Source of the DNA: Candidatus Caldarchaeum sp.
GTDB taxonomy: Archaea; Thermoproteota; Nitrososphaeria_A; Caldarchaeales; Caldarchaeaceae
Length of the DNA stretch: 34,364 nt
Assembly: GCA_038831915.1 (NCBI GenBank)
Contig: JAWBKB010000017.1
Span: 1-34,364, forward strand
Reading direction: 5' to 3'
Part shown: positions 17,325-34,144 of the stretch, one piece after another
How the letters are laid out: each line of letters begins with the position of its first letter
Numbering within the stretch: position 1 is the first letter of the stretch
Position numbers and translations under genes: made by a program
Notes under the pieces: generated by a model
Seen by the model: only the letters and a program-made list of their open reading frames with translations
Database searches by the model: none
Told to the model about the DNA's origin: nothing

Positions 17325-17496
17325 GTTTATGGTTTGAAATTGCAGCTGGCGATAGGAAAGCTGGTAAATTGGAAGGAGCTTAATTTAAGTTTTGCCTAAA
17401 CTCAATGAATGTATTGTAAATGTGTTGCGGGGAAGTGCTGGTGTAAGTCGCAGAGTTTATACATGTAAACCCCTGCCAAACGGCCCGCAAAAGGCT

Positions 17497-17574
17497 TTAG
17501 ACTTGCAAAACTCCTTTCTTCGTGTAATAGCTGTGCGAAACGTTCATGACCTGCATAATCGGCGAAGTGTTCAA
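17497..17574 (-). pseudogene. N-terminal stub of an ABC transporter ATP-binding protein
   Basis: TTG 17574 gives MNTSPIMQVMNVSHSYYTKKGVLQV*, a typical first strand of an ABC ATPase. It lies right after the permease, and no Walker A follows. Confidence 0.6.
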
Positions 17575-17612
17575 ATTTTCTCAACCGCAGTTTTTTCCAC
17601 TCAATTTTAAGT

Positions 17613-19138: not shown

Positions 19139-19166
19139 AGCGAGGAAGTGTGTTTTTCGCTTTCGT

Positions 19167-20100
19167 TTAAACTCTACGGCGTGCTTCCATCATCAACTGG
19201 TCGAGGAATAATTTTGGCAAAATGTTCAAAGCTTGTTTCAAAGGAGAGTCGGGTATCAGCGGGTCTTTTGCAAGTGCGGCACACAACCTAAGCCGTTCGA
19301 CAATTTGTTTTTTCAGAAATTCTTCATCGGGTAACGCGGGTGTGACGGCCAGAATCAGTCCGCGCAGCCGCTTGGTCTTTGCCGAAACCAGCAGATGAAC
19401 CATTCTTTCCCTCATTTCGTGAACTAGGAAGTAAAGCCTGCCGCGTTTTTCTGCATATATAGGTCGGTCAAGTCGTCGACTAGCTGGTAGACAGTGCCTA
19501 CTTCTGAGCCATATCTTCTGATTAGCTCTACTTGTTCCGGCGAAGCTTTCGCGAGAACAGCTCCGGCGTGAGCCGCCGCCTCGAACAACAAAGCGGTTTT
19601 CTCGCGTATCATGACCAAGTAGAGACGTTCGGTCAAAGCCGCCTTGTTTACTACGTCTAATATGTCCTGCGAAGCTCGGTCTCATGCCCGGACGAAAATT
19701 CGGGTCGTTTCTTCCCCAATGTCCAAAACAATTTGGAAGGCAAACATGATGATGCGGTGGCCTTGAAGTATAGCCTTTCCTGCCCCAACCTGAGCCCACA
19801 GGCTGGCGTCTCCTCTTCTATACCTATCCCGGTCGACGATGTCGTCATGGACCAAACTCGCGCTGTGAGCTAGCTCCAAAGCAACCGCAACATCGAGAGC
19901 TTTCTGATATTCGATTCCGCCCAAAGCTTTGAAAACGGTCAAAAGAAGCAAAGGCCGTATTCTTTTCCCACTTTAACAGCGCGTTCGATAAGAAAGCTGT
20001 CTGGGCCTCCCTTTGATTTTTTGGTACAGGTTTGTTCGAGGTCTTCCTTCCTGGCTTCGAATAACGGCGGCACGTCGATGTCTGTGACGGCTGCATTCAT
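19167..20100 (-). pseudogene. Polyprenyl diphosphate synthase (IdsA/GGPP synthase family), disrupted
   Basis: GKRIRPLL, ELAHSASLVHDDIVDRDRYRRG (FARM), KTALLF and YQLVDDLTD (SARM) are split by frameshifts and an in-frame TGA at 19682-19684. Probable ATG at 20100. Confidence 0.88.
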
Positions 20101-21018: not shown

Positions 21019-22680
21019 TTATTCGCCCTCTTCGGCCAAAACGTAGGTCCATGTCAGAAATGGGTCTCTTGATATTTCCACTAATTCCTTGCACGAGTCG
21101 ACTATTTCCTCCGGCGATTTGGCCAAAATTTTATCGATATTTTTGTACAGAGTTCTTTCGAATTTAACCCGCAACAAATCCAATTCATATTCCCGCTGGG
21201 ATAATTGTCCTAATTTCCATCTGGCGATCGAAAGGGCCTCCCACGAATCAAGTATTACCTTTCCCACCGTGTCGCGATCAAAAAACAAGGTTTCATAGTT
21301 TATCCAAAATTTCCAATGAGGAATTTTCAGGTTTTCGTAAAAATCTATGAAATTCTTGAAGAGAATTTTGTATCCGTACCGTTTTTCATCAAAATAGGCG
21401 GGCGACCCAGGGTCCAGCAATATCATCGGTCCGAAATCCACGAATGTTTTGGCAGGTCTTTTTTTCTCCACATTCAGTTTCAGAATTTTTTCCCATAATG
21501 ACCACGTCTCGTACAATGTTTGAGGGGATTCATGCCCAAGAGATATGAGGAAAAAAACGCCAATCGGTATTCCGAGATCTACACTGTTTTCCACTGTTTG
21601 CATCAAGGCTGAGGTTGTGTAAATTCGGCCGTGTGCTTTTCTTACTTCATCGTTTCCTGACTCTGGAGAGATAGAGAGGCCAACGTGTTCGGCTATGTTG
21701 CTTCCTTTAAGCTTCTCCAAGTATGTGAAAGAGGCTGGCCAAAAAAGCTCAAGGCCGATGTTCTTGATGTTCTTCCAGTTGGCGTTTCCCAAGACTTTAA
21801 ATAATTCGTCAATATATTTTTGACCACCGAGCCGTGGGTCTTGGAAAAGGAAAACTGAGTGAACTCCCAGCTCGTCCAACTTTGCGAGGTCTTCGTAAAT
21901 TTTTGACGGGCTTCGGAATGCTGGCATTGTTCTTCCCAGCATGACATTATAACTCGTTCTTGACCCGCCACACGCGGCGCAATTCATAAGACAGCCGCGT
22001 GAAATGGGAATGTTCCACATCATAGTATTAGTGAAGGGGGAAGTTAGCGTTCTGATGTACGGCTCCACCAAATCAAAACGTGTGAATTCAAGCTCATCTA
22101 GAGAACGCGGCGGAACATGGATACTAGTCGAAACGACTTCACCCATCTGGTTCCTGAAAGTACAGTTCGGAGTGTTCTGTAAAGCCTTGAATTTATCAGT
22201 CGATTTTATATTTCTCATGAAGTTACAGATGGGAATTTCCCCTTCACCTCGTATGACGCAGTCGACAAACGAAAAATTCCGCACAATTTCCTCTGCGAAA
22301 AACGTGCTGGTCAGCCCACCCATCGCCACGGTCGAATCAGGATGAAGGTATTTGCAAAGTTTTGCGACTTCAATTGCTCCGACCGAATGAACGCACCAGT
22401 GGAGGCCTACTGTGTAAAGGTCGGCTTCGAGTTTTTTAAGAAAATCAACAAAGTCGAAATTTCTATCTTTCAAAAGCAGTTCTGCGGTGTTGAAAACTTT
22501 GACTTTGAATCCCGCCCTATCTAAGTAATCGGCTATGCTCATCATGCCGACTGGAAACATAATAAAGAGATAGGTGTAATTTGGCACTGTGCGGTCTATC
22601 GGGCCGGGTAAAATAGGTTCTTCGCGAAAATTTGGAAAAGCGGGAGGATGAATTATAACGACGTCATAGGTTTCAACCAT
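21019..22680 (-). CDS. Cobalamin-binding radical SAM protein (resembles the Ta0216/TIGR04190-type family)
   Basis: N-terminal B12 domain (IIHPP..GPI..MFPVG..SIADYL, GLHWCVHS.GA, GGLTST, IRGEGE) and the radical SAM motif RGCLMNCAACGGS with SPESG. Confidence 0.88.
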   Translation of the reverse strand: MVETYDVVIIHPPAFPNFREEPILPGPIDRTVPNYTYLFIMFPVGMMSIADYLDRAGFKVKVFNTAELLLKDRNFDFVDFLKKLEADLYTVGLHWCVHSVGAIEVAKLCKYLHPDSTVAMGGLTSTFFAEEIVRNFSFVDCVIRGEGEIPICNFMRNIKSTDKFKALQNTPNCTFRNQMGEVVSTSIHVPPRSLDELEFTRFDLVEPYIRTLTSPFTNTMMWNIPISRGCLMNCAACGGSRTSYNVMLGRTMPAFRSPSKIYEDLAKLDELGVHSVFLFQDPRLGGQKYIDELFKVLGNANWKNIKNIGLELFWPASFTYLEKLKGSNIAEHVGLSISPESGNDEVRKAHGRIYTTSALMQTVENSVDLGIPIGVFFLISLGHESPQTLYETWSLWEKILKLNVEKKRPAKTFVDFGPMILLDPGSPAYFDEKRYGYKILFKNFIDFYENLKIPHWKFWINYETLFFDRDTVGKVILDSWEALSIARWKLGQLSQREYELDLLRVKFERTLYKNIDKILAKSPEEIVDSCKELVEISRDPFLTWTYVLAEEGE

Positions 22681-22837
22681 TTACAAACGTTAAGTGTATA
22701 CAAGATATATATAGTTTTTCCCGATTAGCGGACGTGTAATTTTCATCGGCAAATCGGCGACTTTTTCTGATGATGCTTATTCAGACAAACCCATGCTGCC
22801 AGAAAATACTTATTAAATCTGCCGCAAAATAGACGAC

Positions 22838-23863
22838 GTGAAAGCCGCCGTTCTTTATGAGCCTTTGAAGCTTGAGGTTCGCGAAGACATCGAAATTCCC
22901 AAATTGCGGAAAAAAGAAGTTTTAATCAAAGTTAGAAGCGTCGGTGTTTGTCCGAATGACGTTAGGTATTACGTGGGCGAAGGTCATCACTGGCATATTC
23001 CCTACGGAGAAAACAGTTATGGTTTGCAGGGACATGAATACAGCGGCGAGGTCGTTGAAATCGGGGACGAAGTCGAAGGCATTTCTCCGGGAGACTATGT
23101 TAGCATAAATCCAATCGTACCCTGCGGCGAATGTCGCTACTGCAGGATGGGTTTCACGAATGTCTGCGTGAAGAAAACGCTCTATCTTAGAGCCTACGCC
23201 GAATACGCTGTCGGCTATGCCCCAAATGCATACAAGTTTCCCAAGAACATCGATTTCGAGGAAGCATCTTTCGCCGAACCTTTAGCGTGTGTACTGAACG
23301 CCGCCAAAATAGCTTCAATTCAGCCGGGCGATGTGGTGCTGGTCGTCGGCGCCGGGCCCATGGGCCTGCTACATACGATGCTGGCAAAAATGGTTGGAGC
23401 AACTGTCGTGGTTTCAGAAATAATCCCTGAAAGATTGCAGAATGCACAAAACTTTGGAGCTGACTACGCACATACGCCTGCGACGGATGAATTGAGCAAA
23501 ACCGTATCACAATTGACTGACGGCGTCGGGGCAGATGTCGTGATGGTAAGCATCGGTAACCCAGCAGCGATTGAACAGCATATCAAGTACGTGCGCAAAA
23601 GGGGTACAGTGATCATCTTCGGCGGAATTGTTCCAGCAAAGAATATCAGCGTAGACCCCAATCAAATTCACTACTATGAATATCGTTTGACCGGTTCATC
23701 GGACTATACGGCCGAAGAATTCCGACGAGCGGTGAACATCATCTCACGAAGGAAGCTTGACGTCAGGAAGTTGATTTCTCACAGATTTCAGCTCGACCAA
23801 GTTGCATTGGCCTTCGAGACGTCGTTGTCGAAGAAGGGATTGAAAGTCGTAGTAAAGCCTTGA
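22838..23863 (+). CDS. Zinc-dependent polyol/sugar-alcohol dehydrogenase (MDR family)
   Basis: GVCPND, GHEYSGEV, structural Zn CGECRYC...C, AEPLAC and GAGPMG. Confidence 0.9.
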   Translation: MKAAVLYEPLKLEVREDIEIPKLRKKEVLIKVRSVGVCPNDVRYYVGEGHHWHIPYGENSYGLQGHEYSGEVVEIGDEVEGISPGDYVSINPIVPCGECRYCRMGFTNVCVKKTLYLRAYAEYAVGYAPNAYKFPKNIDFEEASFAEPLACVLNAAKIASIQPGDVVLVVGAGPMGLLHTMLAKMVGATVVVSEIIPERLQNAQNFGADYAHTPATDELSKTVSQLTDGVGADVVMVSIGNPAAIEQHIKYVRKRGTVIIFGGIVPAKNISVDPNQIHYYEYRLTGSSDYTAEEFRRAVNIISRRKLDVRKLISHRFQLDQVALAFETSLSKKGLKVVVKP

Positions 23864-23910
23864 ATTCCGCCACCTTAAGTTATAAATTAGGGCCCGTCCA
23901 ATCTGAGGAC

Positions 23911-25437
23911 ATGCCGGACAAAGAGTATTTGATAGGGGTGGATATAGGGACATTAGGCTCGAAAGGAGTAATCATAGATAATGACGGGAATATTCTCAAT
24001 TCATGCTTCATCGAACACGGCATAAACGTAATCAGGCCGGGGTGGGTTGAGCAGGACCCGGAACAAACATACTACGGTGATTTCAAAACAATCGTGCGAT
24101 ATTTGATTTCGAAGACAGGTGTTTCATCAAGCCGCATCGTGGGTGTTGGTGTCAGCAGTCTTTCTCCTGACGCCTGCCCCATAGACATTGACGGAAACTT
24201 TGTGAGACCCGCAATCATCTACATGGACAGGAGAGCTACCGAAGAATGCAAAATGGTAGAGCAAACTATCGGTAAGCGCGAGGTCGTGCAGCGAACCGGG
24301 AACGCGGTCGACCCCTATTTCGCGGGGTACAAGATGCTTTGGATGATGAATAATGAGCCTGAAAATTATAAAAGGACATGGAAGTTTCTGAATGCGTGTA
24401 AATATGTCGTCAACAAAATCACCGGTGTCCCTTCAGTCGACATATCGAACGCTGCATTGACGGCTCCTTTCTATGATATTCACAAACGCGAATGGTCGGA
24501 AGAAATTTGTTCGAAGCTGGGTTTTGACAGAGAAAAACTTCCCGAAGTTTACGATTTGGGAGAAGTAATTGCTCACACGTCCCGCAGAACCTCGTCCGAC
24601 ACGATGTTGCCCGAAGGAATTCCTGTTGTCTCATGTTCGGTTGATGGATTAATGTCGTTTTATAGCGTCGGATGTCTCGAACCCGGTGATGCCGTTCTTA
24701 TGTATGGAACCACTGGGGTCATGGGAATCGTATCAGAAAAGCCTACGTGGGACCCGAGGCTGCTGAACACATTTTACTTTGGAGGAAAGACGATTCACGC
24801 CGCAGCGATGATTGCCTCGGGTGCGCTCGTCCGCTGGTTCAGAGACCAGTTTGGGTTTCTGGAAAAAGAGGTAGAAAGACAGTCGGATGTAAGCGCCTAC
24901 AGCTTGTTAGACAAAATGGCTGAAAAAATACCACCGGGCAGCGATGGATTAGTGATTCTACCGTATTTCATGGGTGAAAGAACTCCTATATGGGACCCTG
25001 CTGCCCGAGGAGTGGTCGTGGGTTTAACCCTTTATCACACTCGAAATCACGTCTTTCGCGCGCTTCTAGAATCTGTGGGATACGGGTTGAAACAACATAT
25101 CGATGTGGCTAAAGAACTAGGAATTTCCATAAAGAGAATAGTGGCTGTCAACGGCGGAGCCAGAAGCCGGGTTTGGAGGCAGATAATTTCGGATATAACC
25201 GGAATGCCTCAGTTTTACAGCTCAAAAGCCGGTGGAGCACCGTTCGGTGATGCCTTTTTGGCTGGCGTAGCTGTGAAGGTCTTCGACAGATTAGAGGCGG
25301 TCAGAAATTACGTGGTCATGGACGAGGAAACGTATCCTATCGCGGAAAACACCAAAAGATACCAAGAGCTATACAATGTGTACAAAAGCCTTTATCCAAA
25401 GCTTAAGACCGAAATGCACGCGCTATCGGTTTTATGA
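23911..25437 (+). CDS. FGGY-family carbohydrate kinase (xylulokinase-like)
   Basis: IGVDIGT, WVEQDP, IYMDRR, YGTTG, LPYFMGERTPIWDP.ARG and NGGARS. ATG 23911 follows the TATA TTATAAAT (23880-23887). Confidence 0.92.
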   Translation: MPDKEYLIGVDIGTLGSKGVIIDNDGNILNSCFIEHGINVIRPGWVEQDPEQTYYGDFKTIVRYLISKTGVSSSRIVGVGVSSLSPDACPIDIDGNFVRPAIIYMDRRATEECKMVEQTIGKREVVQRTGNAVDPYFAGYKMLWMMNNEPENYKRTWKFLNACKYVVNKITGVPSVDISNAALTAPFYDIHKREWSEEICSKLGFDREKLPEVYDLGEVIAHTSRRTSSDTMLPEGIPVVSCSVDGLMSFYSVGCLEPGDAVLMYGTTGVMGIVSEKPTWDPRLLNTFYFGGKTIHAAAMIASGALVRWFRDQFGFLEKEVERQSDVSAYSLLDKMAEKIPPGSDGLVILPYFMGERTPIWDPAARGVVVGLTLYHTRNHVFRALLESVGYGLKQHIDVAKELGISIKRIVAVNGGARSRVWRQIISDITGMPQFYSSKAGGAPFGDAFLAGVAVKVFDRLEAVRNYVVMDEETYPIAENTKRYQELYNVYKSLYPKLKTEMHALSVL

Positions 25438-25447
25438 GGAATTTCAG

Positions 25448-25963
25448 ATGAACGGGAAACAACCGGAGAGGAAAAATCAAAAACAAATTCTCTGGCGTTT
25501 CGTGAAATATTATAGGTCTTTCGGCTACGTTGCCAGTGTGGACGAAGACCGCAAAGAGATCGTCGTTTTTCTGCCGGGAAGCAACATCACTTTCATAGCA
25601 GATGTCTCATCATATCTCAACGTAGAGAAAATCAAACCCGGTAGGGGCTACGATCTTACCTTCGCGATTTACGATGCAAAGGTCAGCAGCCAATTAACGA
25701 AAATGTTGGCCGAAGAGCTCGAAAGGCCGTTTGAGGCCATTCCGAGCATTTATACGCGTGAATATTTGTCCCATGGATTAAAATACGTTAAGGAGACGTT
25801 GGCCCGAACAGACACCATCTATCGCTTCGAGCTCCTGAACGCTGTCGACATGTCCTATGCCAGTAACATGCAATTGCAACTAAATCAAAGGTTTAGAGAC
25901 GCTGTTGAATTATCGTACAAAGTACCGACTAAATACAGATGGCGACATTTGCTTGGTTTTTAA
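25448..25963 (+). CDS. Hypothetical protein (171 aa)
   Basis: ATG 25448 with a GAGGA Shine-Dalgarno at 25436-25440, 10 nt after the kinase stop. No family recognised. Confidence 0.65.
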   Translation: MNGKQPERKNQKQILWRFVKYYRSFGYVASVDEDRKEIVVFLPGSNITFIADVSSYLNVEKIKPGRGYDLTFAIYDAKVSSQLTKMLAEELERPFEAIPSIYTREYLSHGLKYVKETLARTDTIYRFELLNAVDMSYASNMQLQLNQRFRDAVELSYKVPTKYRWRHLLGF

Positions 25964-27186
25964 AGTCTCTGCTGCATTTTCCAAAGCTCATATAAGACCG
26001 TATCAGGGATTTCGACAGAATCCAAATTAATCGGTTGGTCTTTTTCGACGCTTCTTTTCACCTTCACGTGGCTGGCGAGCCCTATTGGTAGCAAACCGGA
26101 CTCAGAAGCCGCTTGTCTTTTTTCAATCAGGCCGTAGACGGTATACCCACCTATTCCGTCAAGTTGTTCACCCGGCTTCAGGTCGCGTTTTGCAAATGCA
26201 ACTACATCGCTGAAATAGCCTCTTGCTTTGATGGCTGGCTTTCTTTCAGTCACTGCCTTCTTTACCGTGAGCAGCGTTTCAGACCCGGGTAGATGATACG
26301 GTCTGTAGTAGACGAAGTTCGGGCCTTCTCCTACTTTGAGGTAGCGCATGTTTTCCAGAATCACTTCGTCGTCAGAAGTAGCTATCGCGAATACGCCCGG
26401 GGCTATTCCAATTACGTAGTCAACTACATGAAAATCGTTTAAAATTCCTCCATCCTGCTTCAACCTAAAGATTTTCGCTAAATCTTCGAGTTTCGCCACA
26501 GGACCGTGCATTCCTCTGATGTCTGGAAGCATTCCCGTGGCGTTGGATAGTAGTGTCATTTCGACCATGGTTTTCGTTCCGTCGACGAATGATGTCAGAA
26601 CCTTTGGGTTGAGCTTAGCACGTAAGCTCGACTCGTATACGGTGGTTGGATTCGCGTGAATTTCGAGCGGATTGTTTTTTCCTTTTCCCGCTACTATGAC
26701 TTCCATCCCGATGTACGTTAAAGGCTCGAACAGGTAATGCATGATGGCTCCCGGCTCGTCGCCGATGTCCCCGGTGAAAATAACTCCTGCGAGGTCGGCT
26801 AAACGCGACAAAATCGGTCCAACCGTTGCGTCGAGTTCCGCGTTCAACATGATGACATCTTTCTTTCTGTCGATTGATTTCATAGCGATTTCCGCTCCGG
26901 CCATGACATTTCCGGTCGCGTCGACTACCGCGTTAACTTCCGGTAAATCCGAAACTATGCTGAACGAATCCGTCAGCACGACGCATCCCGAGTCGAAGAT
27001 GCGCTGTGCCTGTTCTTCTGTGCGCGCGACTTTATATCTAAAGCCGGCTTTTTGTAAAGTCAGTTTGCCTTTTTCTATGTCCTGTTCAACCGCAATGGCG
27101 AGCTTAGCTTTCGCTTTCGCAACATGATGAATGAAAACTTCCCCCATTTTACCTAGGCCGACGACCGCTAGCACCGGCTCACGCAT
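25960..27186 (-). CDS. NAD(P)-dependent oxidoreductase with C-terminal SAF domain (COG4091, homoserine-dehydrogenase-like)
   Basis: VVGLGKMG, VDATG, NAELDATVGP.L, GDEPG, GKGKNNPL, SFVDGTKTMVEM, YRPYHL and AKRDLKPGEQLDGIGGY..YG...LPIGL. Confidence 0.88.
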   Translation of the reverse strand: MREPVLAVVGLGKMGEVFIHHVAKAKAKLAIAVEQDIEKGKLTLQKAGFRYKVARTEEQAQRIFDSGCVVLTDSFSIVSDLPEVNAVVDATGNVMAGAEIAMKSIDRKKDVIMLNAELDATVGPILSRLADLAGVIFTGDIGDEPGAIMHYLFEPLTYIGMEVIVAGKGKNNPLEIHANPTTVYESSLRAKLNPKVLTSFVDGTKTMVEMTLLSNATGMLPDIRGMHGPVAKLEDLAKIFRLKQDGGILNDFHVVDYVIGIAPGVFAIATSDDEVILENMRYLKVGEGPNFVYYRPYHLPGSETLLTVKKAVTERKPAIKARGYFSDVVAFAKRDLKPGEQLDGIGGYTVYGLIEKRQAASESGLLPIGLASHVKVKRSVEKDQPINLDSVEIPDTVLYELWKMQQRL

Positions 27187-28254
27187 CTACGTTATCCTCC
27201 ACCCTTTTTCGTCGAATACATTAAGAAATTCCGGGGGCAGGTAAACCCAAACGGTCGAGCCGGCGGCAAATTCCGACTCGCTAAGCGCCTTGATTAATAC
27301 ATCATCATGTTTGAGATGCAAAATGAATTTATTTCTCCCGAGGTTTTCAAGATATACGACTTTAAAGGGAAAAGCTCCTTCGAAATGACTATCATAAATT
27401 TTCACGTGTTCGGGCCTGATCCCGATTCTGATCTCTGCGGGGCCGTCTGAGGGCAGTCTAATTTTTTCATTGCGAATCGTGAGAGAGCCAATGATAAGTC
27501 GCGGCGGTTCGTACTGTGCCTTGATTATGTTCATACCGGGAAAACCGATGAAAAAGCCGACGAATTCGTTGGCCGGCTTATGATATACTTCGTCGAATGT
27601 GCCGAACTGTAGTAGCTCACCATCGGGTGACATGATCGCGATTTTTTCCCCGAATGTCAACGCCTCCGTCTGGTCGTGAGTGACGAAGATCATGGTTTTC
27701 TTTCCGCGCCTGCCCACGTTGAGTAGCAGTTTTTTGATTTCGTATTTTTTCTCTGGTTCTATCGAGCTCATCGGCTCATCTAAAAGAATTATGTCCGAGT
27801 TCTTTATCAAAGCGCGACCGATAGCCACCTTCTGTCTGTCCGCAGGCCCAAGTTTTGTGGCCGATTCATGTAAGATGTTTTCGATTCCGAGGAGTGCCGC
27901 GACTTCGACGGCCTTCTCTTTCTTTTCTTCCTTGGACATTTTCACGTTCATCAAGGGAAACATGAGATTTTCGAGCACGGACATTCGGTAGACGACGGGA
28001 AACTGGAAAACGATGGAAACGTTTCTTTTCTCCGGCGGGAAATTGGTCACGTCGGAATCGTTGATTAGAACTTTGCCGATGGTCGGGCGAATTAGGCCTG
28101 TGATGATTTTGAGAAGAGTGGTTTTCCCGCAACCTGACGGACCGAGTAAAGCATATTGTTTTCCGGATTCAAATAAAAGATTGACATTTTTTACCGCCCA
28201 CCTTTTACCTGAATCGTAAGAATGACTTATATTTTCTAACTGAAGTTTACTCAT
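27187..28254 (-). CDS. Sugar ABC transporter ATPase, GlpT-like
   Basis: GPSGCGKT, VFQFPVVY, degenerate signature LGPADRQK, LLDEP, VTHDQTEALTF and FIGFPGMN. Confidence 0.88.
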   Translation of the reverse strand: MSKLQLENISHSYDSGKRWAVKNVNLLFESGKQYALLGPSGCGKTTLLKIITGLIRPTIGKVLINDSDVTNFPPEKRNVSIVFQFPVVYRMSVLENLMFPLMNVKMSKEEKKEKAVEVAALLGIENILHESATKLGPADRQKVAIGRALIKNSDIILLDEPMSSIEPEKKYEIKKLLLNVGRRGKKTMIFVTHDQTEALTFGEKIAIMSPDGELLQFGTFDEVYHKPANEFVGFFIGFPGMNIIKAQYEPPRLIIGSLTIRNEKIRLPSDGPAEIRIGIRPEHVKIYDSHFEGAFPFKVVYLENLGRNKFILHLKHDDVLIKALSESEFAAGSTVWVYLPPEFLNVFDEKGWRIT

Positions 28255-28266
28255 CCACAATGCGTT

Positions 28267-29358
28267 TTAAACGTTTCTCACATATAAACCTTCTTCAGAG
28301 AAAATCATTACCCGCGAAAGCGGTATGTAAACTCGATTTATCGCAGCAAGTTGATGAATATTGTCCACTGCAGAAGCTAGTATCGTGAAAAAACGGTCAC
28401 CACATTTGGTAACTACGACCTGCTCTGAACCCATGTTTTCAATTAACTCAACGCTGACAGGTATGGAAAGCATCCGCTCAGTCGCGACTGGAAACAACGC
28501 TACGTCGTGTGGATAAAATGCCACTTTGTAATTTTTCCCTTCGTCCAGCTCTGCAAGGTCTGTAACATCGATTTGAAAACATTCATTGATAGCCATGATT
28601 TTTCTGTCATCGTGACGTACGCATTTTGAGTCGAAGACGTTAACTCCAACAATTGAATAAGCATTAGCCGCGTTTAGGTCGACGGGTTTAGCAAAGCATT
28701 CTTTCACGGACCCCTGCTGAACAACCCGGCCCTTTCTCAAATAAACTAATGTTTTACCGAGAGCGGCCGCTTCCTCCGGATTCGGAGTACAATACAGCAC
28801 CGTTGTATTCAATTCTGCGAAAACTCTTTGAAGCTCGAAACGAAGCGATTCTCTTACTTTGTAGTCAAGATTGGTTAGAGGTTGGTCAAATAAATAGACT
28901 TTGGCCCGCTTCACCAAAGCCCTTGCTATGGCCGCTCTCTGTGCTTCTCCTCCACTGCATTCATGCGGTTTTTTGTTGACTATCGTTCCTATGTTAAGAA
29001 AAGAGACGATTTCGTTTACCCTGCTTTGGATTTCTCGCTCGGAGATCTTTTTCACTCTTAACGGAGAAGCGATGTTATCGTATATCGTCATGTTTGGGTA
29101 AAGAGCGAAATTTTGAAATACCATTCCAACATCTCTTTTCTGTGGTGGAAGGTCTGTAACGTCCTTTCCGTCGAAATAGACGCGGCCTTTGTCAGGCTTT
29201 TCCGTTCCGGCAATGATTTTAAGCAGCATTGTTTTGCCCGAACCCGCCGGGCCTAGGATAACAGCCACGTCGCCTGATTTGATTTTAAGGTCAATATCTT
29301 GTAAAACGAGTTGGCCGCCAATTCTTTTCGATACATTTTCGATGACGATTTCTGTCAT
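28267..29358 (-). CDS. Sugar ABC transporter ATPase, GlpS-like
   Basis: GPAGSGKT, SGGEAQR, LFDQPLTNLDYKVRE and YCTPNPEEA. ATG 29358 lies 2 nt after the DUF2160 gene stop. Confidence 0.88.
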   Translation of the reverse strand: MTEIVIENVSKRIGGQLVLQDIDLKIKSGDVAVILGPAGSGKTMLLKIIAGTEKPDKGRVYFDGKDVTDLPPQKRDVGMVFQNFALYPNMTIYDNIASPLRVKKISEREIQSRVNEIVSFLNIGTIVNKKPHECSGGEAQRAAIARALVKRAKVYLFDQPLTNLDYKVRESLRFELQRVFAELNTTVLYCTPNPEEAAALGKTLVYLRKGRVVQQGSVKECFAKPVDLNAANAYSIVGVNVFDSKCVRHDDRKIMAINECFQIDVTDLAELDEGKNYKVAFYPHDVALFPVATERMLSIPVSVELIENMGSEQVVVTKCGDRFFTILASAVDNIHQLAAINRVYIPLSRVMIFSEEGLYVRNV

Positions 29359-29360
29359 GA

Positions 29361-29678
29361 CTATCCCTTCAACAGTACAATAATGACTAAAGGAGTGCCG
29401 ATAATTAGCGTCGTAAACCATGGGAGATTGAGTGCGGCAGTTATTAGCATTACTGCTACCAGAAGCGCGACTGCCAAGAAAATCCTATCTCCCAAAGTCG
29501 TCTTTAGCCCGAAAATGCCTCTTCTTGGCTCGGATGACATCCGGAGAGAAACGACTGCGAGAAACAGAAGAAAGAAGAAGAACGCAACGAGAAAGACCGC
29601 CACTTCACCTTTCCAGTACATCCAAGGCATAAATTCGTTCAGGATAGATTCTAAAGTTTGCAACCACTTGTTTGCCAA
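29361..29678 (-). CDS. DUF2160 small integral membrane protein (GlpU-like)
   Basis: WMYW...F...PRRGIFGLKTTLGDRIF matches the DUF2160 pattern 'WMAW...R.G.L...TTRGDRLF'. Confidence 0.85.
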   Translation of the reverse strand: MANKWLQTLESILNEFMPWMYWKGEVAVFLVAFFFFLLFLAVVSLRMSSEPRRGIFGLKTTLGDRIFLAVALLVAVMLITAALNLPWFTTLIIGTPLVIIVLLKG

Positions 29679-29680
29679 CT

Positions 29681-30493
29681 TTAAAGCCTCCCTATCACGA
29701 ATCCTCTTATAGCGAATTTTCTAACCCAATAAAGCAAAGCTAGTCCAGGTATCAGCGTAATGAAACCAGCCGCAGCAGCGGGGCCGTATTCGACACCCCA
29801 TCCCACTTTTCCGAGGGCGGTTAAAAGCTGCGCGGGGAGAGTCTTCGACATGGTCGAAGCTAAAACGCTGGCAAAGAACATTTCTGTCCACGCGAAAAGC
29901 CATGCGAAGAACATGGCTACACCTATTGCTGGCCTGAGCAGAGGTAGAATAATTTTACGAAACAGCATGAAAGGAGAGTATCCATCGATGTACGCGGCCT
30001 CATCGATCTCCCTTGGAATTGTCGCAAGGAAGCTCGAAATGATCCAAATTGTTATAGGAATTTCAAAAACCATGTAAGCTAGCACCAGGCCGTAATGGGT
30101 GTCCCATATGTTTAAGCCTCTCCAGATCATCAAGTAAGGTATTGAGAAGACAACCGGTGGAGCCATTCGATTTGTTAGAAGCCAAAAGAACAGATGCTTT
30201 TTGGCCAAAAATCTGTACCGGCTAAACACGTAGGCTGCCGGAATGCCGACGGCTAACGCTAAAGCCATCGCAGACAGCGAAATCAAAATAGAATTTACTA
30301 TGCCTGTTCTCCAATATGCCACTTCAAAAATCTCTATCCAGTGTCCAAAAAATAGGTCCGGCATAGATGCGCCTTCGTTGATGCGTTGCTTTGAAGATAT
30401 AGAGACTGAAAAGGTGAAGTAAACGGGTATTACCATTAAAGCCGTTATCACCGCGAGAATCAACAGTTTTACAATTACTGATACTGACCTCAT
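29681..30493 (-). CDS. Carbohydrate ABC permease, GlpQ-like
   Basis: PAAYVFSRYRFLAKKHLFFWLLTNRMAPP, EAA loop EIDEAAYIDG, and WTEMFFAS. ATG 30493 overlaps the upstream TGA. Confidence 0.9.
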   Translation of the reverse strand: MRSVSVIVKLLILAVITALMVIPVYFTFSVSISSKQRINEGASMPDLFFGHWIEIFEVAYWRTGIVNSILISLSAMALALAVGIPAAYVFSRYRFLAKKHLFFWLLTNRMAPPVVFSIPYLMIWRGLNIWDTHYGLVLAYMVFEIPITIWIISSFLATIPREIDEAAYIDGYSPFMLFRKIILPLLRPAIGVAMFFAWLFAWTEMFFASVLASTMSKTLPAQLLTALGKVGWGVEYGPAAAAGFITLIPGLALLYWVRKFAIRGFVIGRL

Positions 30494-31344
30494 TCGATCA
30501 ACCCTTTTCCTTTCGTAAGTCCAATAACCATGATCCAACTTAGGATGATCACTATGTAGAGGTAAACTAGAGAAATTGCCGACGCATAGCCCACGTTCCA
30601 TTGTTCGATTCCCAAGGTTCTAACATATTGAGTGACAAACTCGGTTGATAATCCGGGGCCGCCGCCAGTAAGTATGAAGACTTCGTCGAAAATTTTCAAT
30701 GTGTCGATAAGTCGTAGCAGAGCGACGAATGTTAGGGGGAATACAAGCTGCGGAAACTCGGCGTATCTGAATATCTGCCACCTTGTAGCCCCATCCACTC
30801 TTGCAGACAAAATGTAAGTTTCATTCATGCTGGAAAGAGCCGCGAGTGAAACAAGGAAAACTAAACCTGTCCAGTGCCAGACATCCATCAGTATGACAGT
30901 TAGTATCGCATGCACTTCGTTTCTAAAAGGGTCGTATGCTCCCGATCCGAAAATCGATAAAATCCCGTTGAAAAGAATTCCAAAAGGACCATTGCTTCTC
31001 ACCATGAGAAGCCACATCATACCAATGGTCACGGGTGGAAAAAGTGTTGGAAGAATTATCAAAGACCCGATTAAAGCATTAAGTTTTCCGTATCCTTTTA
31101 ACATGTATCCCAACGCAAGACCAAGTGGGATTTCTATCGCTAAGCAGATTCCTGCAAAGGCTAAACTTCTCAACAGGGCATTGGTAAATCGATAATCTTC
31201 AAACATTCTGTAAAAATGGTCAAAGCCTACGAAGATGTTTCGGGTTGTGAAAGGCGTCTGAACAGCGTAGTTCAACAATGCGAATAGCGGAAAAATTCCA
31301 ACAAAACCCGTAATTATTAATGCAGGTAAGAGGAGCCTCTTCAT
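30490..31344 (-). CDS. Carbohydrate ABC permease, GlpP-like
   Basis: NYAVQ, IEIPLG, MDVWHWTGLV, SARVDGATRWQIFRY and DEVFILTGGGPG. Confidence 0.9.
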   Translation of the reverse strand: MKRLLLPALIITGFVGIFPLFALLNYAVQTPFTTRNIFVGFDHFYRMFEDYRFTNALLRSLAFAGICLAIEIPLGLALGYMLKGYGKLNALIGSLIILPTLFPPVTIGMMWLLMVRSNGPFGILFNGILSIFGSGAYDPFRNEVHAILTVILMDVWHWTGLVFLVSLAALSSMNETYILSARVDGATRWQIFRYAEFPQLVFPLTFVALLRLIDTLKIFDEVFILTGGGPGLSTEFVTQYVRTLGIEQWNVGYASAISLVYLYIVIILSWIMVIGLTKGKGLIE

Positions 31345-31477
31345 GGCCCGAAACCCTAAATGGCACAATGCATATAAATATTTTTCCCAACATCGGTTTC
31401 ACCGGATTCTCTATCTTCGACAATTTTTTGGTCTTGGGAAAGGCTGTGTCAAAAGTTGACTATCGCAGGTAGCCCGG

Positions 31478-32251
31478 TCATCCGGTTACTTTTTTTAACG
31501 CTTCATCCACTTCTTTGTCTTCATGGATTATTGCGACCAAAGCTTTGACGACTTTCTCTGGGTTTGGATGCTGCCAAATATTTCTTCCGATTGTTCCACC
31601 ACAAGCACCCGACTCCATCGCTTCCTTCAACATCGTCAAAACGTCTTTCACGCTTCCCATCTTTGCTCCCCCCATCACCATTATCGGTATCAACGTAGAC
31701 GTAACAACTTTTCTATATTCTGACGGAGGTCCCACGTACGCCGTTTTGCAAATGTCGCCCCCCAGTTCGGCTCCGATGCGCGCTGCCTGCTTCACTTTTT
31801 CCAAATCATACAACACTGTACCTTCTTGGTCGGTGGGGACGATCTCGACCATGTAAGGCATTCCCCATTCTTCGCATGCCAAGGAAATCTCCGAAATATT
31901 GTTTATAGTGCTCCAGTCTAGCGGTACCTGTCCAAAATACGTCGTTTTGACGGCGTCTGCGTCCAATTTGACTGAATACTTCACATACGACTTCTCAAAG
32001 GGAATGGAAAGTATAAAAGGTATCTTTATTTTTCCGTGGCTGACCAAATGCTTTGCGATCGCAGGTGTCACCAATATCGCGTCAGCTCCTCCTTCTGTCA
32101 CCTTAGAGACGACCGAGAAAATGTCTTCAAGACTTCGAAATTCCCCCATCATACCGTGGTCCATCGCCACGACAAGTGACCTGTTTCTTGCGGAAAAGAA
32201 ATTTCTCATTCTTCTTGCTTTTCCCGCAAAAGACACGTGACTGAAGCTCAT
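31478..32251 (-). CDS. Class I aldolase, DhnA/FbaB/LsrF family
   Basis: VVAMDHG, GADA, ARIGAELGGDICKTAY (Schiff-base Lys), GGAK and GRNIWQH. Confidence 0.9.
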   Translation of the reverse strand: MSFSHVSFAGKARRMRNFFSARNRSLVVAMDHGMMGEFRSLEDIFSVVSKVTEGGADAILVTPAIAKHLVSHGKIKIPFILSIPFEKSYVKYSVKLDADAVKTTYFGQVPLDWSTINNISEISLACEEWGMPYMVEIVPTDQEGTVLYDLEKVKQAARIGAELGGDICKTAYVGPPSEYRKVVTSTLIPIMVMGGAKMGSVKDVLTMLKEAMESGACGGTIGRNIWQHPNPEKVVKALVAIIHEDKEVDEALKKVTG

Positions 32252-32322
32252 AATCTAGGTTTGTAATAGCCGTATATAAGTATTGGCTGACTTAGTGCGC
32301 GAATTGAAAAAAAGATAGAGTG

Positions 32323-34095
32323 CTACAGAGGACCTACTTTCTGTCCGAGCAGGCCGCTGCTTCTCAAATAGTCGTCGATAGCCTGTGCAACGCTGACGGC
32401 TATCTCTGCTCCGGGTAGTTTCCGACCCAACCCTTCCATACCTTTGTCTCTCGCTAGAGGCAGTACTTCGGGATAGATCACGCCTATCGCGTTATCAGTT
32501 CCGAAGAATGACTTGCTCGCGACTTCGACCATTGATATCATTCCTCCCCAATCCTTGTCTTTGGCCTTGAAGGCCGGAGCTTGAAATGTTGACCATCTGA
32601 CCGGAAGTCCGACTTCAAGGTTTTTCTTGAGTTCGACGGCCTTTGAAGTCATAAACGCCGCGAAGAGGAAAGCAGCGTCGGCCCGAGGTGAATAGGCTGA
32701 GATAACCCATCCTGATGGGTCGATGTATCCTCTCGGCTTTCTCGGATGGTAGTTGGGAGCATAGACTGGATATGGTGCGAATTCGAACTTTCCTTTAACG
32801 TTCGAGTCTGCAGCTGATAAGCTCGTTGCCCAGTGGAAGTAGAAGGGCCACATCGTTGCGTAATTCGCATCGTATTTGAACGCGTCATGAGCCTCGACTA
32901 TCCCGATTTCGAAGGCTTTAGGCGGTGCGAATTTCAAAGAATCTTCTAACCACCATTTGTACATGGCTTTGCCGGCTTCGCTGTCAAGCCGTCCGCCCCT
33001 TGCGCTGGAGGCGCCTCCGATGGTCCAGTCTTTAACGTTGATACCCCATGGAGTAGAGACTCCGTCGATGTGAGTCAGTTCCAGAGGCATTTTGCCCTCC
33101 GGCGCTGGGTCGCTCAACTGGAAGCAGTCGTCTAAGCCATCCGCAATGTACCAGCCAAGCCAGTCTCCGGGTTTGACTCCGGTGACATAACCATACAGGT
33201 TTTTGTCTGGGTCGGTGAAGAATTCAGCGACATCTCGTGCTTTGTCAGTAGTCCAGTCATCGCTTACATTGCCGCTTTTTCGTGCATCCATATAATATTG
33301 CATCGGAGTTTTGAGTTCATATCCATATCGTCGTTTGAATTCCTGTTTGTTTGCCTGGTCTTCGAAAAGGTCTTTACGATACACCGTTCCAGCGAAGGCG
33401 TTATATGCGTGAAGGGCGTAAAGATTTCCTTGGCTGTCGCTGTAGCTGGCTCTTAGGAAGAAGTCTGCGACATCAAAATGGGGCGGCCGTAGTTGAGGTT
33501 TCTTGCTCAACAGGTCCGTTATGTTTACCGCGCTTTTGTTATATATATAGAATCCGTTCATGTCTTGGTCTGTTCCAATCAGGTCATATAATCCGGCCCT
33601 TAGCCTGGCGTCTTGAACACTACGAACAATGGTATCATAGTTTGACATGGCTTCGAACGTCAAATTTATTCCAGTGATCTCTTTGAAACGCGGTGCGAGG
33701 TTTTTCTCCTCCCAAACCGCCCCCGGGACTGCTTCATACATCACTAGCAATGTTTGGCCGCGATATGGTTTCGAAGCTCGGACAAAATGAATGATCTCTT
33801 CTTCGAGTTGAGGCCGTGAAAGAACTGTGTCACCGCCGATATAATCGATTAACCGGTATGCGGCTCGAAGGTAGGGTTCATCTTCTGCCGAAAGTCCAGG
33901 CGGATAGGCAGGAGTTGTGGGTGGAGTGGCACCCGTCACCGTTACGGTTTGCGTCAACACCCTAGTCAATGTCTGGGTTACGATTTCAGGAGGACGGGCG
34001 AAGAATCCTGCCGCAGCCCCTATGACTAGACCGGCAACGGTTCCCGTGGCAATCTTTAAGGCTGTCCTCCTATCAACGTTTCCTTTTTCACTCAC
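32323..34095 (-). CDS. ABC transporter substrate-binding protein, GlpV-like, with twin-arginine signal and Thr-rich linker
   Basis: DRRTALK plus a TM helix, a TQTLT..TQTVTVT linker, LSRPQLEEEI..F..ASKPY, F.EITGI, GYIDPSGW and AAFLFAAFMTSK. GTG 34095 is preferred over ATG 34113 because TTAAATA (34125-34119) lies at leaderless spacing. Confidence 0.88.
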   Translation of the reverse strand: MSEKGNVDRRTALKIATGTVAGLVIGAAAGFFARPPEIVTQTLTRVLTQTVTVTGATPPTTPAYPPGLSAEDEPYLRAAYRLIDYIGGDTVLSRPQLEEEIIHFVRASKPYRGQTLLVMYEAVPGAVWEEKNLAPRFKEITGINLTFEAMSNYDTIVRSVQDARLRAGLYDLIGTDQDMNGFYIYNKSAVNITDLLSKKPQLRPPHFDVADFFLRASYSDSQGNLYALHAYNAFAGTVYRKDLFEDQANKQEFKRRYGYELKTPMQYYMDARKSGNVSDDWTTDKARDVAEFFTDPDKNLYGYVTGVKPGDWLGWYIADGLDDCFQLSDPAPEGKMPLELTHIDGVSTPWGINVKDWTIGGASSARGGRLDSEAGKAMYKWWLEDSLKFAPPKAFEIGIVEAHDAFKYDANYATMWPFYFHWATSLSAADSNVKGKFEFAPYPVYAPNYHPRKPRGYIDPSGWVISAYSPRADAAFLFAAFMTSKAVELKKNLEVGLPVRWSTFQAPAFKAKDKDWGGMISMVEVASKSFFGTDNAIGVIYPEVLPLARDKGMEGLGRKLPGAEIAVSVAQAIDDYLRSSGLLGQKVGPL

Positions 34096-34144
34096 ATTTA
34101 TACTTAAAACCATAGCGATATTTAACTTTTACCATCCATAAAAC

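Follow-up and report, generated by a model that had tools for sequence, protein, structure and literature searches.

The GlpSTPQUV importer of Rhizobium plasmid pRL9 and its relatives consists of a pair each of ATPases and permeases, together with a DUF2160 protein and a large substrate-binding protein (SBP) of ~575-600 aa, and the reference glycerol locus reads glpR-glpD-ATPase-ATPase-permease-permease-DUF2160-SBP-glpK on both R. johnstonii pRL9 and one Paracoccus plasmid. The D-apiose transketolase route is said to involve ApsI, AplK and AptA/AptB. DXR-II/DRL, the alternative 1-deoxy-D-xylulose-5-phosphate reductoisomerase of Brucella abortus, belongs to family PF21135 (PMC3847144). Here we analyse the window, a 34,364-nt stretch of Candidatus Caldarchaeum sp. 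contig JAWBKB010000017.1 (genome 95.6% complete), in which a GlpSTPQUV-like importer is combined with a DXR relative, an unusual aldolase and a B12-binding radical SAM enzyme (rSAM). As far as the literature searched goes, this combination fits no described pathway, and no published description of the archaeal version was found there.

The sequence-only reading had proposed a complete six-part importer of GlpSTPQUV type with a DUF2160 protein, interleaved with and facing enzyme genes and with a divergent rSAM gene; all importer parts and all twelve genes were located, and the coordinates of 12/12 were verified. The minus strand carries the extracellular SBP of 596 aa (32323-34113; weak SBP_bac_1 match), ABC permease 1 (30490-31368) and permease 2 (29681-30601, likely start 30493 by start analysis), both matching BPD_transp_1, a small GlpU-like DUF2160 membrane subunit (29361-29678; PF09928, 43.7 bits), ABC ATPase 2 (28267-29421, likely start 29358 by start analysis; ABC_tran) and ABC ATPase 1 of the CUT1/UgpC-MalK type (27187-28260; ABC_tran and TOBE/OB_MalK). 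The six parts are thus common to both systems, whereas their order differs, being SBP-aldolase-permeases-DUF2160-ATPases in the archaeon and ATPases-permeases-DUF2160-SBP in GlpSTPQUV, and the glpD, glpK and glpR genes beside the Rhizobium importer have no counterpart near the archaeal one. The GlpV-like SBP is 27% identical to R. johnstonii GlpV over 481 aa, and the DUF2160 protein, encoded by a single copy in this genome, is 28% identical to the pRL9 DUF2160 protein over 53 aa; SBP homologues in archaea are 60-98% identical, and relatives of ATPase 1 60-66%. At its N-terminal end the SBP carries an RR motif, a hydrophobic segment predicted to anchor the protein, unlike in Rhizobium GlpSTPQUV, and a Thr/Pro-rich linker; no close solved structure of the SBP was found. 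Judged by these comparisons, the importer has the GlpSTPQUV architecture, yet is a distant relative only.

The proposal that the importer stands without glycerol enzymes, glpD in particular, extends to the whole genome, in which DAO_C (GlpD/GlpA) had no match, GlpK was not found and the locus kinase is the only FGGY gene. That kinase is 24% identical to Rhizobium GlpK and falls outside the GlpK clade (SH-aLRT 100). The lack of a DAO_C match and of a GlpK-clade kinase, together with the low identity between the SBP and GlpV, suggests a substrate other than glycerol. A glycerol/dihydroxyacetone system, in which imported glycerol would be oxidised to dihydroxyacetone by the Zn-dependent dehydrogenase (Zn-ADH), phosphorylated to DHAP by the FGGY kinase and joined to GAP by the aldolase, could draw on the shared six-part architecture, on three loci with a glycerol- or glycerol-1-phosphate-dehydrogenase-like gene and on one source that names relatives 'glycerol transport system substrate-binding protein'. 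These database labels, however, look like automatic name transfers, and given the divergent SBP, the position of the kinase and the absence of any role for the ever-present DXR relative and the rSAM, we consider such a system very improbable.

The twelve genes form a real conserved unit, in an arrangement beyond chance. We compared six archaeal importer loci (the window, L191, L090, L007, L093 and L094); the five beyond the window repeat the arrangement at protein identities of 46-82%, so the enzyme genes accompany the transporter in other genomes, as a co-occurrence check proposed earlier had asked. The gene for the DXR relative follows the second ATPase gene in 6/6, the aldolase gene is found in 5/6, the sixth locus ending at that point, and the rSAM gene in 5/6, window included. 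In a second species of the genus (G401), all 12/12 genes occur in identical order at 41-82% identity. None of 11 sampled congeners gave a DUF2160 or DRL match, which argues that the block is accessory. An accessory cluster, patchy among archaea and catabolic for a small non-glycerol polyol, is our working view, held at somewhat less than even confidence.

The last gene of the importer operon (25960-27186, minus strand; DRL_cat, PF21135, 190 bits) had been described as a SAF-domain oxidoreductase and taken for an oxidising or epimerising NAD enzyme. This assignment did not survive: the protein matches Brucella DRL (3UPL/3UPY) with E = 3.8e-72, and 7/7 archaeal members retain G121, K191, K193, T229, H250 and R320 (Brucella numbering). 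By sequence it is thus a DXR-II/DRL-type reductoisomerase relative, predicted to use NAD(P), with the phosphate-anchoring residues preserved, and its type and retained anchors make rearrangement of the carbon skeleton of a phosphorylated polyol likelier than simple oxidation or epimerisation. Six of the seven DXR-II signature residues are kept; position 351 is F or Y, where the majority of DXR-II proteins have Val. Two remote archaeal members of the family have lost all three of the fosmidomycin/phosphate anchors K191, K193 and T229. In the tree a long stem (0.92) leads to the archaeal clade and no sister group is resolved (SH-aLRT 89), suggesting that the clade's activity may have shifted. 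No IspG, IspH or other MEP-pathway gene was found in the 95.6%-complete genome, and the enzyme is therefore probably not devoted to isoprenoids. The archaeal protein thus differs from Brucella DXR-II in its host, in closing a polyol-importer operon, in residue 351, in its long separate stem and in the oxidative, catabolic direction in which we infer it to work.

Relatives in bacteria link this enzyme type to polyol uptake and phosphorylation as well. Among 154 bacterial or unassigned DRL loci, a Gut-type (glucitol) PTS EIIBC gene lies within 6 kb of the DRL gene in 71, and other neighbours are a Zn-ADH (14), transketolase (TK; 10), an FGGY kinase (8), ribulose-phosphate 3-epimerase (RPE; 2), TAL (1) and RpiB (1); in B. 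pumilus the gene sits in a SorC-DRL-GutM-PTS operon. Since the glucitol-type PTS beside 71/154 relatives combines import and phosphorylation in one step, the kinase likely acts first and the DXR-like enzyme second. Methylerythritol is reportedly carried by the sorbitol PTS in Salmonella (Testa 2004). No published description of the bacterial ZnADH-DRL-FGGY (with or without SIS) and Gut-PTS-DRL operons was found in the literature searched. The archaeal version differs from them in its DUF2160-type ABC importer, class I ADH-synthase-like aldolase, B12 rSAM and private small protein, and lacks the SIS protein and PTS. Apiose-pathway genes adjoin bacterial DRL triads: in L119 an apiosidase, a split transketolase and an AplK-type kinase lie beside ZnADH-DRL-FGGY. 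The D-apiose transketolase route (PMC13001218, PMC13753588) is likewise linked to an ABC importer, a C-branched C5 sugar and an FGGY kinase. It differs in using a transketolase, for which the window's genome has no match, and in its AplK, outside whose clade the window kinase falls; the catabolic oxidoisomerase that is known, ApnO, is KARI-like in fold and does not belong to the DRL proteins.

The kinase (23860-25437, plus strand, starting at 23860 TTG or 23911 ATG; FGGY_N/C) bears out the earlier description as xylulokinase-like, XylB being its best model (TIGR01312, 333.7 bits), though below the cut-off of 380.25; GlpK scores 207. The kinase phylogeny that had been proposed as a check places it within a XylB-related group, in a 6-row subclade (SH-aLRT 98) that includes kinases of the bacterial DRL operons L065, L066 and L077, apart from GlpK and AplK, and its nearest relatives outside the genus are such DRL-operon kinases. 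Upstream lies the gene of the Zn-dependent medium-chain dehydrogenase, a putative polyol or carbonyl oxidoreductase (22838-23863, plus strand; ADH_N and ADH_zinc_N), whose best NCBIfam models (Tdh, IolM) all stay under cut-off and whose orthologues are 64% identical in G401, at the same position, and 62% identical in G082. This pair is not universal, three relatives having a glycerol-1-phosphate-dehydrogenase-like gene instead. In one of them, G159, where importer, DXR relative and aldolase are present, no FGGY gene was found genome-wide, which means that some members do without the kinase step or that another compound is imported there.

A conventional route for linear pentitols or tetritols would import xylitol, arabitol, ribitol or erythritol, oxidise it to a 2-ketose with the Zn-ADH and phosphorylate that to xylulose-5-P (or erythrulose-4-P), the DXR relative being a plain polyol- or ketose-phosphate dehydrogenase without rearrangement. 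Zn-ADH and a XylB-related kinase are the classical pentitol pair; a G219 kinase of the same subclade adjoins RPE; the G225 cluster joins a Zn-ADH and an ABC transporter to a canonical XylB that exceeds its cut-off (393 bits); and pentose-phosphate-pathway genes occur beside DRL, both in the bacterial counts above and in archaea, where TK and TAL adjoin the G159 locus and RpiB adjoins L007. This pathway, however, does not explain why a DXR-II-type enzyme is so strictly conserved and has its DXP/fosmidomycin anchors intact, would find no transketolase match in this genome for the use of xylulose-5-P, does not account for the aldolase and rSAM, and lacks its kinase in G159. We regard it as rather unlikely.

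In our preferred reading, to which we give a little under an even chance, a small, probably C-branched polyol resembling methylerythritol or apiitol is imported, phosphorylated, oxidised and rearranged by the DXR-type enzyme, and aldol-cleaved. Gene content and conservation are what we observe; all chemical steps we infer. The DUF2160-type ABC importer would take up the polyol and the XylB-related kinase would phosphorylate a terminal hydroxyl, jointly forming the counterpart of the bacterial glucitol-type PTS. The DXR-II-type enzyme, working oxidatively, would convert the polyol phosphate to a 2-ketose phosphate, most likely with rearrangement of a C-branched skeleton to an unbranched form. 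Two conversions are candidates: that of 2-C-methyl-D-erythritol 4-P to 1-deoxy-D-xylulose 5-P (DXP), and that of apiitol-P, its hydroxymethyl analogue, to a pentulose 5-P. The ADH-synthase-like aldolase would cleave the ketose phosphate, possibly helped by neighbouring transketolase and transaldolase in relatives that have them. The Zn-ADH, elsewhere the glycerol-1-phosphate-dehydrogenase-like enzyme, might oxidise free polyol or reduce the freed carbonyl fragment. The sequence-only reading had a different, larger or modified polyol imported, oxidised or epimerised, phosphorylated and aldol-cleaved; the non-glycerol wiring stands with the lack of GlpK and GlpD, the larger size is not borne out, and the simple oxidation or epimerisation gives way to DXR-II-type chemistry. 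Several points count against our reading. Aldol cleavage of DXP would bring little energy, its products being hydroxyacetone and glycolaldehyde phosphate; a pentulose-5-P product would have no obvious outlet, there being no transketolase match in this genome; position 351 is F/Y; and a costly B12 rSAM in a catabolic route has no explanation.

The aldolase itself (31478-32251, minus strand; PF01791, 113 bits) is a class I (Schiff-base) enzyme of the DhnA/DeoC family that scores 187 with the ADH-synthase subfamily (cut-off 241), 128.6 with archaeal FBA (cut-off 430) and 111.7 with LsrF (cut-off 297). The genome's true ADH synthase scores 306.7 bits and lies in an asd-ADHS-DHQS-II operon on another contig (C18), and the cluster enzyme is accordingly assigned, on these scores, as an ADH synthase paralogue and not the housekeeping enzyme. 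Its best solved relative is MJ0400, an ADH synthase that naturally acts on a methyl-ketone sugar phosphate, which speaks for the preferred reading. K184, the Schiff-base Lys, and D33 of MJ0400 are aligned and kept. The cluster aldolase thus shares the DhnA/DeoC fold family with MJ0400 and the archaeal class IA aldolases and differs from them in its scores under the family cut-offs and in having Val at Y153; the missing Tyr is a further point against the preferred reading.

The rSAM gene (21019-22680, minus strand; PF02310 and PF04055), single-copy in this genome and divergent from the Zn-ADH gene, encodes a class B enzyme scoring 373 bits with TIGR04190, under the cut-off of 500. Its inclusion in the set, suggested earlier, is supported by homologues of 48-63% identity in 4/5 other importer loci; in L007, L093 and L094 the gene lies between the SBP and permease genes, inside the transporter operon. 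Most class B members of the radical SAM family act as C-methyltransferases. An imported precursor might be phosphorylated, C-methylated by the rSAM and remodelled by the DXR-like enzyme to give the phosphate of a branched polyol, for use as a solute, as part of a cofactor or as the head group of a lipid or of the cell surface. Such chemistry suits biosynthesis better than energy metabolism, DXR-type enzymes are to our knowledge biosynthetic in every studied case, and the embedded rSAM genes and the glycerol-1-phosphate-dehydrogenase-like gene of three loci point the same way. Against it stand the accessory status of the block, the catabolic look of an aldolase to which relatives add TK, TAL or RpiB, and the gene content of the cluster, in which none for a glycosyl, nucleotidyl or lipid transferase was found, and we judge salvage or biosynthesis improbable.

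In G082, a 60% identical rSAM homologue is divergent from the Zn-ADH gene in a polyol cluster with an FGGY gene and without the importer or any DUF2160 or DRL match, so the block may be two modules; G159, in turn, has importer, DXR relative and aldolase, no FGGY gene and a broken rSAM homologue. That two or three unrelated modules (importer, DXR relative and aldolase; Zn-ADH and FGGY kinase; rSAM) merely lie side by side is nevertheless hard to credit, because the rSAM is tied to the importer in two arrangements, divergent from the Zn-ADH gene and inside the operon, the kinase's closest relatives beyond the genus sit in DRL operons, and synteny in G401 is complete despite the low identities. 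The rSAM and the conserved small protein belong to the system. The latter had been listed as an orphan (25448-25963, plus strand; its ORF opens at 25376, with 25448 the likely start) and matches no Pfam or NCBIfam family; a profile search of 1.84 billion proteins found only 7 representatives. Homologues of 41-45% identity occupy the same position in G401 and G159, and the AF2 model (pLDDT 80.4) had as its sole Foldseek matches weak ones (E at least 0.02) to OB-fold proteins.

Our results argue for a second, catabolic life of the DXR-II family: a conserved gene for a predicted DXR-II-type oxidoreductase accompanies a polyol importer in archaea, in a genome in which no IspG or IspH was found. 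The block that holds it, 21019-34113, comprises exactly the twelve genes that the sequence-only reading had assigned to it. On the minus strand, an operon-like row runs from a binding protein gene (596 aa, 34113-32323) through a DeoC/DhnA aldolase (32251-31478), a first permease (31368-30490), a second permease (30601-29681, likely true start 30493), a DUF2160 protein (29678-29361), a first ATPase (29421-28267, likely start 29358) and a second ATPase (28260-27187) to an oxidoreductase with a PF21135 "DRL_cat" domain (27186-25960; hereafter DRL). Three plus-strand genes converge on this row: a Zn-ADH (22838-23863), an FGGY kinase (23860-25437) and a small protein without a family, whose ORF opens at 25376 and ends at 25963, with a likely start at 25448. 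The Zn-ADH and a B12-binding radical SAM gene (22680-21019) are divergently oriented; likely starts were chosen by examining the start codons of the block genes. By tblastn, the radical SAM, FGGY, small protein, DRL, DUF2160, permease and binding protein genes are single-copy in the window's genome (1.59 Mb, 34 contigs, 95.6% complete). The window elsewhere carries archaeal genes (ribosomal protein L21e, an RNA polymerase Rpb4-type subunit, Pus10, SRP54 and DUF655), and the source labels on close homologues include Candidatus Caldarchaeum sp., Nitrososphaerota archaeon and Bathyarchaeia. The N-terminus of the binding protein (32323-34113) has a twin-arginine-like DRRTALK motif, a hydrophobic anchor and a Thr/Pro-rich linker, with the GlpV-like domain beginning at about residue 92.

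The archaeal importer has all six components of GlpSTPQUV, the proteobacterial glycerol ABC system, including the DUF2160 subunit and the two ATPases. The statement that this system normally lies beside glpK and glpD holds, because R. johnstonii pRL9 and a Paracoccus plasmid show the order glpR, glpD, two ATPases, two permeases, DUF2160, binding protein, glpK; the binding protein of the reference glycerol loci is about 570 aa long (574 aa on pRL9). The archaeal importer, although built of the same six parts, is a distant relative in which the gene order is not the same and linkage to glpK, glpD and glpR is absent. Its DUF2160 protein is 28% identical to that of the pRL9 system over 53 aa, and its binding protein is 27% identical to R. 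johnstonii GlpV in a pairwise comparison (481 aa, E = 3e-35) and 25-29% identical to its proteobacterial plasmid homologues. The absence of glpD, first noted for the window, extends to the whole genome, in which a search for DAO_C (GlpD/GlpA) gave no match and hence neither GlpD nor GlpA was found. Given the lack of a GlpD match, a kinase that is not GlpK and the 27% identity to GlpV, we reject glycerol as the main reading. The cluster thereby offers a handle on the cargo of DUF2160-type importers other than glycerol; a literature search on DUF2160 together with ABC transporters found nothing on point.

The kinase, the sole FGGY gene of the genome, is 24% identical to Rhizobium GlpK and scores 207 bits as GlpK, against cut-offs of 498 and 590. 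A quick IQ-TREE run on 28 kinases, whose reference sequences came from annotated records of E. coli and Rhizobium, unites GlpK with AplK (SH-aLRT 100) and leaves the window kinase outside their clade. Its earlier description as xylulokinase-like is right in so far as the kinase falls within a XylB-related superclade (SH-aLRT 95), but it scores below the cut-off of the XylB model TIGR01312 (333.7 vs 380.25) and belongs to a subclade separate from that of E. coli XylB. This subclade of six rows (SH-aLRT 98) includes three kinases from DRL operons, those of L065, L066 (second triad) and L077, as well as an archaeal kinase (genome G219) that adjoins a ribulose-phosphate 3-epimerase. The window kinase groups with type-2 triads, and congruence between the kinase and DRL trees was not found. 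The core of the D-apiose route is given as aplK plus aptA/aptB in PMC13001218; the D-apiose transketolase pathway finds no counterpart here, with the kinase outside the AplK clade and no Transketolase_N match in the genome.

The importer is present in six archaeal loci, namely the window, L191 (genome G401, same genus), L090 (G159, same order), L007 (a Bathyarchaeota MAG) and the metagenome contigs L093 and L094. The DRL gene lies directly after the second ATPase gene in all six, and five of the six have the aldolase, whose position is invisible in L093 because that contig begins inside the binding protein gene. The radical SAM gene is likewise found in five of the six; it and the Zn-ADH diverge in the window and L191, and in L007, L093 and L094 it is co-oriented with the binding protein and permease genes and lies between them. 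The proposed co-occurrence of enzymes and transporter is therefore borne out for DRL, aldolase and radical SAM, but the Zn-ADH and FGGY genes accompany the importer only in the window and L191 and not in the remaining four loci. All twelve genes recur in identical order in L191, at 41-82% protein identity, and the small protein is found in three of the six loci (window, L191 and L090). An Fe-ADH_2 protein, whose best model is glycerol-1-phosphate dehydrogenase (217-244 bits vs a cut-off of 413), stands between aldolase and binding protein in L090, L007 and L094; a full-length transketolase and a transaldolase adjoin the aldolase in L090, and an RpiB gene follows the DRL gene in L007. Contigs of matching length among the hits of the three protein searches (for example 17215, 13081, 22460, 6862, 18759 and 137691 bases) suggest that binding protein, DRL and radical SAM homologues may lie together more widely.

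Within the phylum the block is accessory. Among 401 sampled genomes, the window's genome counted, DUF2160 was matched in five (three of them above cut-off) and PF21135 in five, and only the window's genome and G159 had both. Neither was matched in any of 11 sampled congeners (0/11); G401, a twelfth congener found through the radical SAM search, carries the whole block. Two DUF2160 matches were set aside as weak or broken: that of genome G225, where the locus is a different, MalE-type XylB/ZnADH cluster, and that of G219, where it is a distant importer without enzymes.

Judged from its sequence, the oxidoreductase is a DXR-II-type protein. The window protein matches PF21135 at 190 bits and Brucella DRL (3UPL/3UPY) at E = 3.8e-72. 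PMC3847144 gives G121, T229, H250 and V351 as DXR-II signatures, K191, K193 and T229 as fosmidomycin anchors and R320 as a dimer-interface residue. In Brucella numbering, G121, K191, K193, T229, H250 and R320 are kept in 7/7 archaeal locus DRL proteins; position 351 is F in four and Y in three of them, so that they lack the Val351 of most DXR-II proteins, a residue present in 29 of 40 Gut-PTS-linked proteins. Residue 351 tracks context, being V in the L077/L115 group as well, T in the four proteins of type-1 triads and F/Y in the seven archaeal ones, and it is possible that it acts as a specificity determinant. In two distant archaeal PF21135 proteins (G106 and G093, 32-34% identical), K191, K193 and T229 are all changed. 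The one in G106 (L210, G106:C17, 7232-11599), in which the phosphate anchors of DXR-II are missing, is flanked by a TPP enzyme on one side and a further radical SAM gene on the other and adjoins an Opp-type ABC transporter, a different archaeal context for PF21135. When 55 DRL proteins, leaving out DLO1/DLO2 and the Brucella sequences, were placed in a tree rooted on the G106 and G093 proteins, the archaeal locus proteins formed one clade (SH-aLRT 100) on a long stem (0.92), grouped (SH-aLRT 89, branching order unsettled) with an Actinomycetota clade and a Bacillota clade containing B. pumilus. Table 1 of PMC3847144 places B. pumilus SAFR-032 under DXR-II.

Because the window's 95.6%-complete genome gave no match to IspH or IspG, nor to Transketolase_N, we conclude that the DRL enzyme does not serve isoprenoid synthesis in this genome and reject the reading as a MEP-pathway enzyme of the host. 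The literature found on COG4091 concerns MEP only, and no paper linking DXR-II to apiose, to PTS/sorbitol or to DUF2160 importers was found (about 1.7 million PubMed Central articles lay outside the search).

The bacterial relatives point to a different role. We collected 159 DRL-relative loci (79 from genome contigs and 80 from metagenome contigs), set five archaeal ones aside and scored the neighbours of the remaining 154 within 6 kb by tblastn with a limit of E <= 1e-10; the flanks that could be seen had a median length of 8.8 kb of a possible 12 kb. A glucitol-type PTS EIIBC lay near DRL in 71 of the 154 bacterial or unassigned loci (L079 and 70 others among L008-L172), a Zn-ADH in 14, a transketolase in 10, an FGGY kinase in eight, Zn-ADH and FGGY together in seven, a SIS protein in four, a ribulose-phosphate 3-epimerase in two, and a transaldolase, an RpiB and an apiosidase in one each. 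In B. pumilus the order is SorC regulator, DRL, GutM, PTS. The bacterial locus L119 reads SIS, ZnADH, DRL, FGGY, apiosidase, DeoR, split transketolase, second FGGY; its apiosidase-family gene (L119:7117-8664) matches PF13204 at 281 bits, and its second kinase groups with E. coli SE15 AplK, as does the L066 kinase beside a split transketolase. A PTS couples import and phosphorylation in one step, and the repeated pairing of PTS and DRL therefore indicates that the substrate of DRL-type enzymes is a polyol phosphate that has just been formed. By analogy, the ABC importer and FGGY kinase of the archaeal block would take the PTS role. Testa et al. are said to have found in 2004 that the sorbitol PTS carries 2-C-methyl-D-erythritol in Salmonella. 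The frequency of glucitol-type PTS neighbours (71/154) suggests that a catabolic role in polyol operons is the common role of the DRL family, and that the main task even of "true" DXR-II enzymes may lie in operons for polyol (methylerythritol?) uptake. Four features set the archaeal block apart from these bacterial DRL-centred operons: its ABC importer is of the DUF2160 type, and it carries in addition a class I aldolase, a B12 radical SAM enzyme and a small protein of its own.

The aldolase could in principle be a housekeeping enzyme, either an ADH synthase or a fructose-bisphosphate aldolase (FBA). It scores 187 and 166 against ADH synthase models with cut-offs of 241 and 299 (NF005556 / TIGR01949), 128.6 against archaeal class I FBA (NF040816, cut-off 430) and 111.7 against LsrF (cut-off 297). 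A true ADH synthase (306.7 bits) is encoded on contig C18 in a compact operon of asd, ADH synthase and 3-dehydroquinate synthase II (L003:390-3233), by which archaea enter the synthesis of aromatic amino acids. This makes the locus enzyme a spare paralogue, and with its scores below the cut-offs both housekeeping readings are rejected. Aligned to the solved ADH synthase MJ0400, it keeps K184, which we take to be the Schiff-base lysine, and D33, with Val in place of Y153, presumably a catalytic residue. ADH synthase, whose substrate is a 6-deoxy-5-keto sugar phosphate, transfers a hydroxyacetone unit, the kind of fragment expected from a 1-deoxy-ketose phosphate such as DXP.

The radical SAM enzyme has the B12-binding and Radical_SAM domain pair and scores 373 against TIGR04190 (Ta0216-type; cut-off 500), a family for which we know of no function; neither TIGR04190 nor Ta0216 was mentioned in the literature searched. 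Matches at E <= 1e-20 occur in 10 of 61 relatives, the window's genome included, and identity reaches 60% or more only in G401 (63%) and G082 (60%), both in the same sugar context. With so few matches, and the close ones in that context, we reject the reading of it as a housekeeping (lipid) gene without connection to the block. The G082 copy, too, stands divergent to a Zn-ADH, one that is 62% identical (L192, G082:C26:1-10947). Besides four Zn-ADHs in all, the L192 cluster contains a class II aldolase, a cupin, a xylose-isomerase-like TIM barrel and two FGGY genes that the contig ends truncate, and is without importer or DRL genes; the G082 genome gave no DUF2160 or PF21135 match. The radical SAM gene therefore tracks polyol metabolism and not the importer alone, which ties this B12 radical SAM family to sugar-alcohol metabolism. 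A homologue in G159 (L195, G159:C3:860-2234), 42-43% identical, is split by a stop codon and lies off the importer contig. The small protein belongs to a family with seven representatives among 1.84 billion proteins by profile search; Pfam, NCBIfam, ESM Atlas and Foldseek on PDB gave nothing usable, and its predicted model (pLDDT 80.4) has Foldseek matches to OB-fold proteins that are weak (E >= 0.02) and cover part of the chain.

From these gene contents we infer a five-step pathway in which a polyol would be imported by the ABC system, phosphorylated at a terminal position by the FGGY kinase and oxidized by the DXR-II-type enzyme with NAD(P)+ to a linear 2-ketose phosphate, probably with the DXR-type skeleton rearrangement in reverse, before the class I aldolase would cleave a C-C bond; the free polyol, or else the carbonyl fragment that cleavage yields, would be the substrate of the Zn-ADH or, at other loci, of the G1PDH-like enzyme. 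Candidate substrates, about equally likely, are 2-C-methyl-D-erythritol (MEP to DXP) and apiitol/apiose (to pentulose-5-P). The mechanism has weak points: pentulose-5-P would be left without a taker because the genome has no transketolase match, aldol cleavage of DXP would give a poor yield, no FGGY gene was found in G159, the kinase and DRL trees disagree, and the scheme gives the radical SAM enzyme no step. The main rival explanation is a linear pentitol or tetritol pathway, in which the DRL enzyme would not rearrange its substrate.

Returning to the rearranging pathway, we speculate, while considering it rather unlikely, that non-MEP archaea run a DXR-II-type enzyme backwards as a catabolic oxidoisomerase on a C-branched polyol, 2-C-methyl-D-erythritol or apiitol released by bacteria or plants, that the linearized ketose phosphate is split without transketolase by an ADH-synthase-like class I aldolase, and that the B12 radical SAM enzyme adds a so far unprecedented radical step on the polyol. 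If true, this would constitute a new carbohydrate pathway and place two enzyme classes in roles new to them. To our knowledge, DXR-type reductoisomerases are known only as biosynthetic MEP-pathway enzymes. According to a 2026 paper (PMC13753588), ApnO is the only double-duty isomerase known in catabolism; its fold is KARI-like, and it does not belong to the DRL proteins. The block proteins are soluble, ordinary targets, which makes this reading open to direct test.

Two further regions of the window deserve mention. Short overlapping ORFs, most of them without a family match, fill 16824-20096, which looks like a decayed ABC transporter; the region includes a truncated BPD_transp_1 permease fragment (17613-18158) that is unrelated to the locus permeases, with no tblastn match between them. 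At 6210-7031, a presenilin/SPP-like ORF overlaps a longer ORF (6536-7900) with a CitG (triphosphoribosyl-dephospho-CoA synthase) domain.
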